Shown one piece after another: positions 3,301-14,915 of a stretch of 64,000 nucleotides of DNA. The notes under the pieces were generated by a model. It made no database searches and was not told the origin of the DNA. It worked only from the letters and a program-made list of their open reading frames with translations. Every line of letters begins with the position of its first letter. Within the stretch, counting starts at the first letter, position 1. Source of the DNA: Ascidiella aspersa (taxonomy: Eukaryota); NCBI GenBank assembly GCA_963924565.1, contig OZ004611.1, positions 27,218,001 to 27,282,000 of the forward strand, in the 5' to 3' direction. A program made the position numbers and the translations under genes.

Positions 3301-6300
3301 AGGTGTTGGAGCATGGAGTTATTAGTTGCAGCAAATGTGCAAAAAAAATAAAAATTGTTGTAGCACAAAGACAAGTCCGTTATCTAGTTGAGCTTTACTA
3401 AAAAACAAAATTACTTCAAAGGCTTTTTTAAGCGATTGTGACAAGTCGTCAAAAAAAAATCTTAAATTAATGTGGTATTCAACAAAGCAGTGCAAAAAAA
3501 CGAGTGTATATTTGGTTCTATAAAGCAAATAAGTCAGCGAATCTTATAAAAAACTTCGGAAACCTTTGTCATGTTTAGTGGTACTAATTAAAATTGTGTA
3601 TTTTTTTAGATCCAGCAATCGCCTAGTAAAAACGAAAGTCCAACGTCGGAAGGTATGATATTCGTAAATTATTTTCATTTTTTAGACCCCACTTAGATGG
3701 CCTTGAATGACATCTAGCTAGTGACATCATAGTCGACCAATTGTAATCCAATAATATAACTTCATGTGAATTTTAACTTTTTTCCAAATTTGAATCGACG
3801 TCAATTCCTCCTGTTTTAATCTGAAACAAAGCCGACAATAAAATAAAGTTTATAAACAAAACAAAATGAAACACCATAAATTAACAAGTCGCGTAGTTTT
3901 CACTCTCTAAATAGTGTTTGTTGTCGTCATTTTTTCATGCTTCGGGAGCCTACTGTCGCTTTTAGCTTCCCTGGAAGTTAAAACAAGCGTTTAAAAAAAA
4001 TTAAAAAAAAAGATAAAGAGGTATTTTAGTAGACCAGTAAGGTCAACTTGGCACACGAATGCCATCATTTGCATATGTTTAATTTTGTAAGGCTATAATC
4101 AAACCTATTTTGTATTTCAGCTGCAGCCAAGCCATCGCCTCAGCCTGTCAACTCACCTGAAGAACGAGCGGTAATTACGTTTTGAACTTTATTCATATAT
4201 GCTCTACTTGAAGCACACTGTTTTAGCGACGCGTATATTTGCGTGAGAGTTTAAAAAGCTGTTGATTCACTTTTAACAATTAAAATGAATATCAGCATAT
4301 AAATATCAAAGCCCATACAAATGTAGGTGTACCCACTACATTCGCATTCATATATGTTCGAAATAATTTATAGCAAAAATAGCAAAACCGTTGTTTTATA
4401 CAAGCCTCAAAAATATGTGTCTTTGTAAATCGCCGTATTTGCCTAATTCTAATTCTTAATAGGGTAATCAGGTGGCACAATATAAAGGCAAATTGTTTTC
4501 TATTCTCGACAATTGGTCGCACTACCGTACTTTACAGATCAAAGTAGAAATCCCTTTTCAATCGATGCAATTTTGTCTTTATACAGTGCCACTTGATTAC
4601 CCAAAATATGTCGTTTCTAATCCGCAAATTTGGTTCTCTTTATTTACCCTGTCCTCTTTGATTGCAGGCAAGATCAGACGCTGGGACTCTTCCACTCTCC
4701 AACGACAACTCGCCACGATTCTACAATTCGCGCCACAGTGAGTTCAAGCCCCGTGTTTCCACTTATACTTTTGGGTTGTAAACTTAAAAAAAAATATTTA
4801 ATATCTGTATCTCACGGATTGTTACTTAAAAAACATCATGCCGCTAATTTTAGCAATTTTCATTTTTGACATCGACACTTGTCTGACACAAGGGTTGTAT
4901 AGGTGGCTGTCCTAAACTTTATCGAAACATTACTTAATCATAGCACTGCCGATATTTCAGGCGAAATATATCCCGATTCGATACTAAATCATCTCAGTAT
5001 ACCAAGGTTATATTACTAAGGTTAAAAAAGTTTTTTTAGGGCTTTTTTATTTCGAAACATTTTTTTATTATTTTTTGCAAAAAAGAAATCGGCCGTCTGC
5101 TCCGATACCAAATGACTCCATTACTATGCTCAACCAAGATTTGATTCAGTGTTACAGAGCTCAGTTCTACTTTCGCATGTCATTAGTGTTCCTAAATATT
5201 TTCTTTTTTCCCCTCAGTTGCTGCAAACGTCGTCTCTACTGTTCACACCGGTCCCGGTAGCGTCACGTACTACACTACCCAGCCCCAATCCCACGACCCC
5301 AACTTCCCCAAACACCCCCCTGTGCTACCTGGGGTCCACCCCGGGGTCACAGGCCACCCTATCATGCCCCCATCGCACCCATTCATGGCCCAGGCCCCCG
5401 TGTATCCTGGCGCCGGGGTCTTAAGGCCCCCTATGGGTGAGGATTTGCCGTCTCAGGCCTCGCCCGTTCAACAGGCAAACGAATACTACATGCACCAAGG
5501 TAAACTTTTTTGTTACAGTCTGATTTCTGGTTGCTTAAGGTTTGGGTTAATGGGAGTCCAGGTTGGGTCTGTTAAAAAATAAATGTGTGTGCACTTGCCA
5601 TACTTTTCACAGTGGTATATGGTGAAATATGTGTGTGTGTGTGTGTGTGATTCGGGGGTAGAATCACATCATTTATATATGAATTGCAGTAATTTAATTG
5701 TTTTTGTTTAGAACTTGAAGTGCTTACTTTGGTCGTTTATAGTTTGCAATCAAACAAACTGTTATATTGATAAGTGAATGAATGAATGAAAGACACACAA
5801 ACATATGTGTTTAATAACATCTGTGATCTAGCCCCTCCAACGATTACGGCTTCCGTATCAATAGTAATCGTTGGTCATAAAGCAACTTCCGAGGATGCTA
5901 TTCACAGATGCTATTAAACACATATGTTTGTGTGTCTTTCATTGATTGATACGGACTGATGATCCCCCTGTGTGAAGTTGCTTCTCCTAACAAAATGTGC
6001 AATTATTGGCGCATGGTGGTTTCTCGACTCGCTCCTCTCTTAGCCTGCATAGCTCAGTTGATAGAGCGACGGTCCCGGCTTGACCGGAGGTCGTGAGTTC
6101 GAACCTCACTGCAGGCCAGTTGTTTTTCTGGCTTGCTCTGCTTGCATCATAGATCGACAGATTCGGCGACTCTGCGATGGCTTTTCGGTGTATTATGTTG
6201 ATCCGATGCTATGTGGTAGTATCCGTACTCGTCCGATGCTAGGTTGGTATATGCGCCGATTCAATACCAGCTAATATAGAAGTTTTAGACGTGATATTAG

Positions 6301-9300
6301 ATCCAAGGCAGCGATTCGGCCTATACATGTAAATTTATTTTAAAAAGGTAAGTTAACAACTGAAATTTTAGCTTACTAACATGGTAATAAAATCCCTCTT
6401 AAAAGTTTTAATTTTTTTTGTTTTGCTTACTTGATAACAGTAATAATGTCATAAGTAGCTGACATCCCTAATTGAAGATAGCAATTCAAGTTAGTAAAAG
6501 AGGTTTAGACGAAATTAAAACGTTCATAAGTTAATTGGCCAAATTTCCTTTATCGCCAACAAGTTTGTTCCCTACTTTTTTAAAGAATTTAGATTTAGGG
6601 TATAACCGCTGTGTTAGATGTTAAACCATAGCTTGAATCCCTGTGTTTATTTGATATCATATCGGCGCTAGTACTTCCTTAGTATTACAGGACATCCGTA
6701 TTCCCTAGATCAGTGGTTCTCAAACTTTTGTTAAAAAAATTACGCAACGGTCCCCCCAGCAACTTTTTAATTGCTCACGGTCCTTAAAAATATACACAAA
6801 TAAACTCAAAATAACGCGTTGTTTTTAATTGTATCAATGGGACGGGTGCACTTGCTTCTTTGCTATCAGTTATGTTAACCTCTAATTAACGAATCAATTT
6901 ATTTGAGTCTAGCAATAACGAACAGTTTTAAAACCGTGGCCGTATAGCCCACATTGCCAGCGCAGCAAGCTGTAAAAACGTAATTCTCACTAGCACAACG
7001 CAACACTATGACGTCACAATGGACAATTTAACTTGAGCGTGCAATAACGTAAATGGACAACTAATGAGCTTAGTTTGGAAAATAAAAGTAAGTTGCCTGA
7101 AAATTTTATTGCCCAAAAAATTATGTTCTTTAGGAGAGTCGTGTTGATTTTTTTGTTAGGTGCTTCGCGGTCCCAGAAAATTGTCTCGCGGACCCCAAAA
7201 GGACCGCGGACCCCAGTTTGAGAACCACTGCCCTAGATCAACTTGGCTTCAAGACTACATTAGCATACCGGAAACGCTTAAAATTTTAATATCCTGGCCC
7301 GCTCACTAACTCAGAAACCGTAATGTCTTACTGAATTATTGATTCGTTTCTCGTTGAGGGAAATGAGCCTAGCTAATCAATATGAAAATGTGTTGAACTC
7401 TATTTTTGCACGGCATCACAACTTAAATATAATTCAAAACGATCCTCCATGCTTAAATCATACCAGAGAAAAATACGATTCGCGGGCCGGACGAAATTTA
7501 TTTATGCATTTGTGCTTTAACCGAATGTATCCGTCTTTGAAGAATGATTAAAACCATGTATAGCGGCCCTCTTTAAATCGCATTTCATCTCAAATCGAAT
7601 TTTTTAACCTAATCTAGTCAGATTGTGTGTGTTTGAAATCTTTTTGTCACGGTCTGCCACAACATTTATGTTGTTCATGTGGTCGGCTGTAAGAATAACA
7701 ACCCACCACCTCTGTTTTGAATATTACTTTTACCAGGATTGAAAATTTAGCCATTTTAAGTTGACGTAAAATAAAGTCTAGCAACTGTTATGGTTTCTCA
7801 AATGGTTAGATCGAAACTGAATATTTTTTATTATTATTATGGATATTAAACATGTTTCTATTGGTGCGCATTTCTGGTTAATTCTATTGGTGTGTATTTC
7901 TTCGAAATTTTACCACCAGGTTAACGCAGACGCATATTCAATCTTTTCGGGTGGCTTTAAAAACTAATAACACTGCTTTGTAATAACAAAAAAACAACGT
8001 ATTCTGTACACATTGCAGGTACACCTGGCCTTAACTTCAATTACATGGCAAGTCCATCTCCTCAACCGATGTATTACGTACTACCAAACTCAAACGGCGG
8101 CCTTCAGCAGTATCAGGTATGTTACCTGTCCTGTATATCTTTCCGTTTAACCTGGGTAGTTTTTCGTCTTGTTAATATTCAGAACAGATATTACGTTGAC
8201 AGTAATAATCACCATATAGACTTGAGTTGTTTAGACATAGGGATTGGGATGGATTTCAGCGTTTTAAAATGTTTGTTTCAATAAAAGTGCAAAACTTACA
8301 CGTGAGAACAATTCAGCGGTTGCTATTTGTTTTATTTTTATTAGTTGCAATGTGATGATATTAAGTTTAGTAGTTAGTCATTTTCAATACTCAACATCTT
8401 AACCATGGCAATAACTTGACTGGGACTTTATAATGACTTATGCACCGCATAATTTTAGAACCTAAACGCATATAAGTATGTAACGATCTGTGTAGCCCAC
8501 GATACTACTACATTCTTCAGCCATTGTGACATCATAATTGCATACTGTGTTAGTGGAATGTTACCGCTTCTGTATAACTTTAAAATAAGTCAACTATTTA
8601 TAGTCAATATGGCGTCAATAAGGAAATTATTTTAGTTGAATGTGCAAACAATGTACTATGCCAGCTTCTTAACGTTTTTCCTTGTTGCACCCCTTTCAAA
8701 TCACCAAACAACTCTCGTACCCCCTTCTAGAATTGCTTAAATAACGAAACTATTGTTATTTTATTTTTATACGAGTTACTGATAACACAGTAACACATAC
8801 CAAATTGTGAGTTAGTTTTACATTTACCCGAGCAAAGACATGAATAGCAGTACAACATTTTCTGTACCTGATTCAGCATCGCGGCACCCCCCAGGAACAG
8901 TTCACGTATCCTGGTGAAGAATCCTTGCACTATACTGTTGTATTGATTATATCATAATCATAGTTATTATCGTGTCATTAGGGAAATAGTTTAGATGAAA
9001 GGTGCAAACAATGTACTATACCAGTGGTTCTCAACCGGGGCGTCGCGGCGCCCTGGGTGTGCCATTTCTAATGCTCAAGGGTGCCAATAGGTAATTTGAA
9101 AGATTTTAAGAATCTGATTTTTGCTCTCTCGGTAAGCTTCTTGATACAACTGTTTCTGCACGATTAGAGACCAGTATATCAAATAACATTTTCCTGCATT
9201 TTTTGGGTTAATGGTGTTGTTTCAGTTCCATTTGTCAACGAAAATTCCAGTCGGGATGCCGCAAATCTATTTATTATTTTTTTTAGGGATGCCTTAAGAG

Positions 9301-12637: not shown

Positions 12638-12971
12638 CTTAACAAACTGGAAAGCCTTAAGTTTACACGTTTCAGTTTGATCAGTGCTTATCTCCCATAG
12701 AGAAATGCCGCCATTTGTTAACGGATACTCTTTCGCCAAAAAGTCGGCACTAAAAACAAAATATCGGCCATCCCAACTCCAATTCACCACTGGTCCACGT
12801 TCATGTTTCCGCTCAAGTTTTCACGTTGTCCGTCGTTGCTTGTCCGCTTTTCCGTGCTTTCCGCCTTTCGCCGCTATCCAACTTTACCGCGGGTCGAGCC
12901 CTCGTTTCTTCACGCCACTCTCCCGTTTTCGTTACGCGATGTCGCTTAATGACGAAAGACAGTTTTTCGTA

Positions 12972-13462
12972 AAGAATGTCAAAGCCCATACAGAGGTAGA
13001 TATAATTTTTGACGTTTCGAAAAAATATTTATTCATTCTCAACATAGTCAATGTTTTACCTACTTCTGGGTGGTCTTTGATACTCTTACTACAACCTGCA
13101 ACCATAATACTCCACAGAGTTTTTTCGTAGAAGAATATTAAAGCCCATACAAAAGTAGCTCTCATTTTGAACGTTTCGAATAACTCTTTATTCAATATCA
13201 ACATAGACAATGTTACCTGCTTCTGTTTGGGATTTTATATTCTTACTATGTTTTACGACAAACTCCAACCATTATACTCCACAGAGTTTTTCGTAGTAAG
13301 AATATTAAAGCCCATACAAAAGTAGCTATCATTTTGAACGTTTCGAATAACTCTTTATTCAATATCAACATAGACAATGTTACCTGCTTCTGTGTGGGAT
13401 TTGATATTCTTAATACGTCTTACTTCAAACTCCAACCATTATACTCCACATGGTTTTTCGTT
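12972..13462. repeat. Tandem array of three ~165-bp units, each with an internal inverted repeat
   Basis: Units start aagaat(a/g)t(t/c)aaagcccataca at ~12972, ~13131 and ~13298. Units 2 and 3 are nearly identical. A solo related end lies at ~4301-4330. Confidence 0.85.
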
Positions 13463-14915
13463 CTCGCTCACAGCTCGCGCGAAGTAGTTTTTTTTTACGT
13501 GGCGTCCTTTTTTCTGCCCCTGCTGTCTCGTGACCTTTTTTAGAATGCTTGCACGTCCCCTTTTTGTCCTATCCCCGTAAGAATTGAATTGCGCGATTAT
13601 TCAATGAAGGGTAGCATGATTCGACAAACTCATACAGTGGATTGCCCATGTTTCGATAATAATATATTGATTATTGTTTTACAACTTCACAAATGCCATT
13701 TTAAAGGCCCTATCCAAGCAGAGCTGTGAAGTGGTATCATGATTTGTCGCAATCCTACCTTCCTATGTTTTGTAATTATCTTAGGCAAAAACTTTAGTAT
13801 TAAGGGTCCGAACGTAAAATAATCCCGACTAAATGTAGCTGTTAACTCGGTTAAGTTGATTGTTCTTTAGGTTTTTATATTTACGAACCGTCGTCTGCGT
13901 GTTCTTAAAAGTATAATATCGTACAAATGTATAATTTTTTTATAAAACAATAGTTTTTTTAGAACTCACTTTCTAGGTTATAATTCATTCAAACATCGTT
14001 GATTATTTTTTTGATCAATTTTTTTTCCGTTTGCGATTAGTTTTGATTTGGGAAATGCACTTCCGCTATTTTGTTGTTGAAAACAGTCGTTGAAACTGAA
14101 AAGCGTTTTTTAACGGTTTAAAGCTAGCATTTGATAAAATATGAATTAGACACTTTTTTAAGCGAAATGCGCGTTTGAAAGAAAAGAGTGCTAAACCACA
14201 TAAGGCCTATAGCACAGAGTTTCTCGGCCTCTGCGCGGTCACAAGGAACTAAACTAAAGCGCAAGAATAACACCAGAGCTTTAGCGACTCATTTATTTTT
14301 GCTGACGTTTTTTAAACAAAACAAATATAGGAAATTAGCATTAATCTTTGCGAATTTAATCAATATGAACCATGTCTTCGTAATCTAAGCAATGATCCCA
14401 AATATTGTCGAAATCTTGCTCAAAACTCAATGTATCTAAAGTAAAACTACAACACTCCGCAACCAAACGAAATCAACCGGTGATCCAAATTTAGGCTGCG
14501 ACGCATAGGTTAAGAAAAAAACACTGGCCCAAACAGCACAAAAAAAAATCCACGACCCTATAACATATCAAGTTCGAAAAAGACGAAAGTACCACTGCAA
14601 CACCGCTCTATTATACTCGTGTATTTTGCTGTCAAGCGCGCACACGTTTATCGGAATCGACACCCTTACTTAAAAACCTTCTTTTGTTTGTTTTTGGGAG
14701 GTGAGCACGTTTCTGCTGTTGTTCTGCCGAACCTGTCCCGGCGAGTCACACTGACCTATATTCTTCGCGCGACGTAGTTCGGAAATAAACCTTTCTTCGA
14801 AACATCGTCCATGTACTTGGCTAGTTTATGTTGCACACGAGATTGTTTGAAAGTACATCCACGATATGCCAGGCGTAGAAAGTTTAAGTTTGTTGTTAAT
14901 TTGAATGTTTTGAAT

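Follow-up and report, generated by a model that had tools for sequence, protein, structure and literature searches.

How does a stretch of a few hundred nucleotides, probably lying in an intron, come to hold nested hairpins, further interlocking complementarities and a tRNA-like cloverleaf? The question is posed by positions 5585–6330 of the window analysed here (the whole 64,000-nucleotide stretch of Ascidiella aspersa contig OZ004611.1, assembly GCA_963924565.1, positions 27,218,001 to 27,282,000 of the forward strand), where the original prediction had seen a single structured cassette. We find that a single copy of a young repeat family has inserted at window positions 5785–6192; the family has a non-coding unit of 348 bp that contains no open reading frame (ORF). 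With good confidence, we consider the locus to be a young multicopy element that likely owes its mobility to the reverse transcriptase (RT)-endonuclease of a Penelope-like element (PLE) and its transcription to a tRNA-derived RNA polymerase III (Pol III) promoter. Our best reading is of a non-autonomous PLE partner that lacks a ribozyme and carries a tRNA promoter.

With 40 of 2127 candidates scored, a search of the 309 Mb genome returned at least 212 matches, all of which fall within window positions 5776–6201. Exact motif matches numbered 362 and 717 genome-wide (the latter for a 21-mer), while the reversed controls gave none. The units, numbered u1–u348 from L007:2270, lie head to tail in arrays of up to 12. 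A second young group, subfamily B, has a unit of 353/354 bp that is 86% identical to that of subfamily A, forms arrays of its own and has the same two ends as subfamily A; older copies show 70–90% identity. The tRNA part and the PLE-like part of the unit occur together in subfamily A, in subfamily B and in the older copies. The longest array noted, of 12 units (L028:1836 onward), sits inside an older copy of its own family. Aligned to this unit, the window copy and its flanks resolve as follows.

5762..5771, plus strand: likely left copy of the target-site duplication, 10 nt, degraded (one mismatch with the right copy, 13 nt off the element end)
5776..5784, minus strand: extra CATT-type repeats at the long end (alignment; long-end survey)
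5785..5866, minus strand: inverted arm, u1–u101 with 17-nt and 2-nt deletions, stopping at the 'long' fixed end (alignment to the unit)
5864..6192, plus strand: forward arm, from u20 round to u2, stopping at the 'short' fixed end (alignment to the unit)
5864..6042, plus strand: PLE-like half of the unit, u20–u200, with a predicted rod at u26–u149 (fold; comparison with PLE)
5880..5983, plus strand: intrinsic helix, 5880–5889 with 5974–5983, forming the rod's outer stem and retained by subfamily B and by older copies
5956..5962, plus strand: CTGATGA, resembling a hammerhead core but lacking a GAAA partner; not present in subfamily B or in older copies
6043..6117, plus strand: tRNA-like cloverleaf, u201–u275 (50.9 bits), with an anticodon loop lacking U33 and purine 37
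6050–6061, plus strand: A box (tRNA fold), with a G>A change of the window copy at 6061
6097–6105, plus strand: B box (tRNA fold)
6109..6137, plus strand: trailer hairpin with T5 (6123–6127) in its loop, competing with the acceptor stem (fold; subfamily comparison)
6193..6202, plus strand: likely right copy of the target-site duplication
6203..6345, plus strand: unrelated older repeat in the flank (128 matches, 71–91% identity)

The pairings that had been proposed are all present in the sequence. The long inverted repeat is real, its arms measuring 49 nt at 94% identity (5778–5826/5902–5950) rather than about 55 nt, and the 11-bp inner hairpin (5837–5847/5864–5874) and the complementary pairs 5852–5862/5945–5955 and 5880–5889/5974–5983 were found; the stretch also folds far better than shuffled sequences (z = −10). 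However, they do not form one designed module. An inversion accounts for the long and inner hairpins, which lie where its two arms overlap: 5785–5866 carries u1–u101 on the minus strand and 5864–6192 runs on the plus strand from u20 to u2. The 5852/5945 pairing arises from an 11-nt direct repeat within the unit (u5–15 = u103–113) combined with the inversion. This repeat, located beside both ends, is exact in subfamily A alone, and we therefore do not take it as a start signal. The only pairing of those noted that is intrinsic to the unit is the helix aagcaacttc/gaagttgctt. The segment 5654–5668, which had been counted in the cassette, is outside the element: apart from the self match, no listed genome match begins before window position 5776. 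The short repeats tccgatgcta and gattcggc, each present twice (6202–6330) and also assigned to the cassette, belong to the older repeat in the flank.

The break point of the inversion varies from copy to copy, and the nested hairpin is a by-product of the way in which the window copy was inserted. Since the interlocking layout is not conserved between copies, the window architecture is neither the conformational switch that had been suggested nor a host noncoding RNA. The forward arm matches the commonest unit at 317 of 331 positions (96% identity). The insertion site lies downstream of 5500/5501, a likely splice donor in a gene on the plus strand whose exons are rich in proline and glutamine; judged from the open frames, it is likely to be intronic, and the window copy is probably inert intronic DNA. 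A MIR6027 match (E = 0.011, far below the gathering score) was discarded, as it reflects the inversion.

How the family inserts can be read from its ends. We surveyed 62 insertions, drawn from most of the first 100 listed exact-motif matches (30 loci and 40 regions, contig C1) after nine overlapping or duplicated loci had been dropped. The outer ends cluster at two sites about 98 nt apart, which take 83 of the 91 ends: u346–u9 (39) and u94–u104 (44). Inverted copies combine one long and one short end in 24 of 29 cases, never two long or two short ends, the other five having an unclassed end, and of the 33 non-inverted copies 31 terminate at one or other of the fixed sites. By contrast, the 103 inner or 5′ ends are scattered over all 23 bins of the unit (2–10 per 15-nt bin). 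Target-site duplications of at least 9 nt (mode 13 bp) flank 38 of the 62 insertions, compared with four of 3782 mismatched flank pairs; in the window copy, the degraded pair is only plausible. Finally, an extra CAT or CATT is found beyond 16 of 82 distinct long ends, all loci pooled, where about one is expected by chance. This suggests slipping at initiation, and the extra CATT-type repeats of the window copy are likely to be stuttering as reverse transcription started.

Fixed ends, a one-sided tail, inversion and duplications are together the tail-and-inversion signature of PLEs. Such a layout of ends has been described for these elements (PMC3846280, PMC8557442), and in vitro work on a PLE has shown that the spacing of two internal start sites makes the tail and that each strand of the target is cut and then extended (PMC11167929). 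The PLEs of this genome show the same end geometry as the 348-bp element. The original prediction had named a non-autonomous retroelement first among its candidates and had proposed a genome search for copy number, boundaries and duplications; the hundreds of copies, the two fixed ends and the duplicated targets support that candidate. It had also likened the layout to that of DIRS-type elements. DIRS-type (tyrosine recombinase) elements have fixed terminal inverted repeats and an internal complementary region, and make no target-site duplication. A non-autonomous element of this type would account for the inverted, internally complementary segments of the window copy, but the family has target-site duplications, 5′ truncation, a variable inversion point and an underlying tandem unit repeated in arrays, and 33 of the 62 insertions lack two outward ends. 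We regard this origin as extremely improbable.

The second half of the unit bears out the non-decoding, Pol III-type tRNA that had been proposed from the cloverleaf and its T5. The predicted A and B boxes are unchanged among family copies, whereas the anticodon loop varies (CCGGCTT, against CCGGTAT in older copies). The anticodon loop of a decoding tRNA has U33 and a purine at position 37; with neither present, we rejected a decoding tRNA gene. Where older copies carry other letters at acceptor-stem pairs 6 and 7, pairing is retained in 18 of 18, and in other subfamilies a C–G pair of the trailer is replaced by U–A. The tRNA look-alike likely serves as a promoter. Copies run through the T5, which therefore does not terminate the RNA that propagates, and the trailer pairs across it, another indication of read-through.

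SINEs (short interspersed nuclear elements) are partners of LINEs (long interspersed nuclear elements), and the tRNA-derived head could be that of an ordinary LINE-dependent tRNA SINE lying beside a chance template-switch palindrome, or else of a host noncoding RNA; one copy (L201), bounded by a duplication, does begin exactly at tRNA +1 and stop at the long end. Yet copies of the family do not halt at the tRNA but reach back into the preceding unit, there are two fixed ends and tandem runs, and no poly(A) or simple-repeat tail is present. The palindrome arm is itself element sequence, which speaks against a chance neighbour, and the window copy, 96% identical to the commonest unit, carries an A-box change. 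This explanation is very unlikely.

The other half of the unit leads to a candidate helper. The rod at u26–u149 is predicted in both subfamilies: when A is compared with B, 25 of its 30 pairs are unchanged, one is changed but still paired and four are broken in the alignment used, subfamily B re-forming rod pairs in a shifted register. This rod is likely to be the landing pad for a helper RT. Numerous PLE families are present in the genome, encoding RT and GIY-YIG domains and bearing minimal hammerheads. One of them, P1, has an 816-amino-acid RT and GIY-YIG ORF, 3422-bp tandems and a 79-nt tail; 13-bp duplications were found at three of five scored P1 loci. Its likeness to the unit was spotted by eye and then scored in an alignment anchored at the short ends, giving z-scores of 4.3, 7.1 and 5.0 against subfamily A, subfamily B and an older copy, the best of eight families, with P1 chosen after inspection. 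In the same anchored test, four long-tailed families gave 0.7–3.3 and three short-tailed families less than 1. The likeness extends past the long end (z = 2.7, 3.2) and holds over 200 nt (z = 3.2, 4.0), compared with −1.1 for the tRNA half. The P1 stretch aligned to u1–u200 consists of the tail and the likely protein start, and its predicted rod is in register with that of the unit but has another outer stem. On these alignments, P1 or a relative is likely to be both the source of u1–u200 and the helper. As a separate observation, a group of PLE families with a zinc-finger linker (L067, L075, L079 = P1; L083, L086, L303, L317) has tails of about 75–85 nt, compared with 30–40 nt in the cited papers, and shares a GATT(C/T)-TT tail motif.

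Is a ribozyme then hidden in the unit? Rfam searches of tandem dimers of A and B found the tRNA alone above the gathering score, so that of the database checks that had been advised this one returns the tRNA and no other family. The CUGAUGA...GAAG hammerhead candidate fails, since CUGAUGA occurs in subfamily A only and no GAAA was found on the RNA strand of the unit. A search for hammerhead variants with a better core gave only four point variants or chance hits, and an HDV-like (hepatitis delta virus-like) hairpin at u313–u335 has no Rfam support and no consistent P1–P3 by inspection. No ribozyme is conserved in the family. We have also considered a retrozyme with an unrecognized or variant self-cleaving ribozyme, since the unit resembles animal retrozymes in its size, its tandem arrangement and the stability of its fold (circular z = −5.0) and the CUGAUGA and GAAG of subfamily A flank stems of 4 and 7 bp. 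The missing GAAA, the Rfam outcome and the absence of CUGAUGA from the equally young subfamily B and from older copies make it improbable.

The PLE-partner reading can be put as a sequence of steps. Pol III would start at u201 in one array unit, pass the T5 and enter u1–u200 of the next unit, the RNA of which would fold into a rod descended from a PLE tail and ORF start. The PLE protein would bind the rod, cut both target strands and prime cDNA at u2 on one strand and at u101 on the other; a single completed cDNA would leave a direct copy, and two cDNAs meeting head to head an inverted copy, with the hairpin seen in the window. Arrays could be rebuilt by repeated copying of a unit-length RNA, either as a circle or by end-to-end jumping, and the cloverleaf might mark the unit end for RNase P, replacing the hammerhead. 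The unit-length RNA route is the least certain step, to which we give slightly less than an even chance, and RNase P as the cutter is rated lower. Still more speculative is a cycle of ribozyme-free RNA circles, in which the tRNA mimic would be both the Pol III promoter and the RNase P mark, and the unit RNA would be ligated and copied repeatedly by the PLE RT; this is a possibility that we hold to be rather doubtful, and equally doubtful is its corollary that the RT starts at two sites with telomerase-like stuttering.

If the template were a transcript beginning at u201, the resulting copy, such as L201, would lack u102–u200 and be sterile, and the lineage therefore needs templates that reach upstream of the tRNA (a multimer, a circle or a jump). 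In a duplication-bounded array starting at the tRNA 5′ end (u200), a private change is present in five of five units, and in subfamily B arrays homopolymer changes are present in seven of seven and three of three units (the first also in one other insertion). Arrays of 12 and seven units contain four and one internal differences, respectively. Such array-wide private changes speak for the repeated use of one unit. Three of four sequencing runs contained one 378-nt contig (348 + 30) with no differences; a tandem DNA array would give the same loop, so this contig says nothing on circular RNA. A further observation from the runs, a 2.5-kb contig (run X5, record 15) with short matches to the tRNA arm and to the u313–u345 hairpin and with diverged continuations, hints at related units in another lineage.

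Several results weigh against this reading as a whole. In the tRNA half, the acceptor-stem changes are of the CpG type, and the best predicted fold is the trailer hairpin over the acceptor stem and not the cloverleaf. In the rod, conservation is clear, but the covariation that had been recommended as a check is thin. The P1 likeness, as it appears from the alignments, is weak: it does not reach beyond the short end on the upstream side (z = −0.4, 0.4), the P1 stretch folds no better than shuffled sequences (z = +0.9), the tail lengths differ (79 nt for P1 and 98 nt for the element), and in an unanchored screen of 88 stretches with three queries one chance flank match scored as high as P1. A BLAST comparison of the unit with about 140 PLE loci, which included no specific search for Naiad-type PLEs, returned only element copies and chance matches. 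As for the arrays, 105 of 116 variants are not array-wide and 11 are; two changes are present in two of three units and one array-wide change does not extend to the inverted arm of its copy, which indicates duplication after insertion. A pile-up of 5′ ends at the tRNA start is not shown, with 12 pattern matches compared with seven at a control site that cannot detect subfamily B; once two point variants are removed, the tRNA-start junctions are four of subfamily A and six of subfamily B, and those at the control five of subfamily A (six matches, two identical).

These array data bear on a rival that departs from our best reading in the final step only. The same PLE-mobilized element could use linear read-through templates, from Pol III leakage or host Pol II, with arrays growing later by unequal exchange or slippage. 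The scattered 5′ ends, the changes in two of three units, the one absent from an inverted arm and the lack of a ribozyme would all fit, as would the finding that unprocessed RNA is the main PLE substrate in vitro (PMC11167929). Against this, arrays of 12 and seven units with so few differences leave little time for stepwise growth, private changes span whole arrays, and a T5 in each unit makes multi-kilobase Pol III read-through unlikely. We see in it a serious possibility, although one that we do not expect to prove right.

Around the element, part of the older repeat at 6203–6345 forms 28-bp minisatellite arrays elsewhere (for example G000:C2:39.09 Mb and C9:1.228 Mb). Window positions 6711–7230 hold an insertion resembling a miniature inverted-repeat transposable element, with terminal inverted repeats starting CAGTGGTTCTCAAACT and an 8-bp duplication (6703–6710, 7231–7238), the length of which makes it hAT-like. 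A further PLE family (L237/L240 type) is represented by fragments matching its start, on the minus strand at 12932–13543 and nearby. Elsewhere in the assembly, small contigs (L052, L089 on G000:C11; L051 on G000:C35) carry a bacterial-type GIY-YIG gene, which we take to resemble UvrC, and are likely to be symbiont or contaminant DNA.

If the PLE-partner reading is true, the family provides a PLE RT with a minimal natural substrate of 200 nt that exists in two living versions and whose start sites are mapped, and the candidate helper sits in the same genome as its non-autonomous partner. The origin of PLE tandems and of head-to-head inversions, and the need for the hammerhead, would become testable. 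A ribozyme-free, tRNA-promoter PLE partner was not found in the literature searched, which did not cover Repbase and Dfam; miniature elements bearing tRNA or 5S sequences are described as partners of long terminal repeat elements (PMC10886601).

As to known systems, the element shares with endonuclease-bearing (EN+) PLEs the two internal start sites, the one-sided tail, the inverted 5′-truncated arm, partial tandems, duplications of 8–14 bp and an AC-rich hairpin near the start site (PMC11167929, PMC3846280, PMC8557442). It differs from the EN+ PLEs of these reports in having no ORF and no hammerhead, a tail of about 98 nt instead of 30–40 nt, and an internal tRNA-type promoter. Like tRNA-derived SINEs, it has internal A and B boxes, but it has no LINE-type tail and does not start at the tRNA head. 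With animal non-LTR retrozymes it has in common non-coding tandem units of 150–450 bp, a stable fold and PLE kinship (PMC7229834; bioRxiv 10.64898/2026.07.22.740005), while the type I hammerhead in each unit that defines them is missing; the words 'tRNA' and 'Pol III' are absent from the main text of the preprint (bioRxiv 10.64898/2026.07.22.740005). The schistosome Sm-alpha and Sj-alpha repeats also have a Pol III promoter inside a tandem unit, the upstream unit transcribing the next and single copies being sterile (PMC6765202); Sm-alpha is described as cutting itself with a hammerhead, of which the element has none, and in the element a PLE end signature is mapped. Chlamys MRC1 is likewise a non-autonomous PLE partner, with head-to-tail insertions and a 3′ likeness to an autonomous family, but it belongs to a different PLE clade and host, and its account in PMC8557442 describes no tRNA-derived part. 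The amphibian PolIII/TAN, OAX and Rana/polIII repeats, likened to the element by description only, have tandem units of 200–360 bp with a tRNA-like segment and no matching SINE, and their description gives no mobilization route (PMC10702118). Should the ribozyme-free circles prove true, they would stand to PLEs as SINEs do to LINEs and could explain puzzling tRNA-related tandem repeats of animals.

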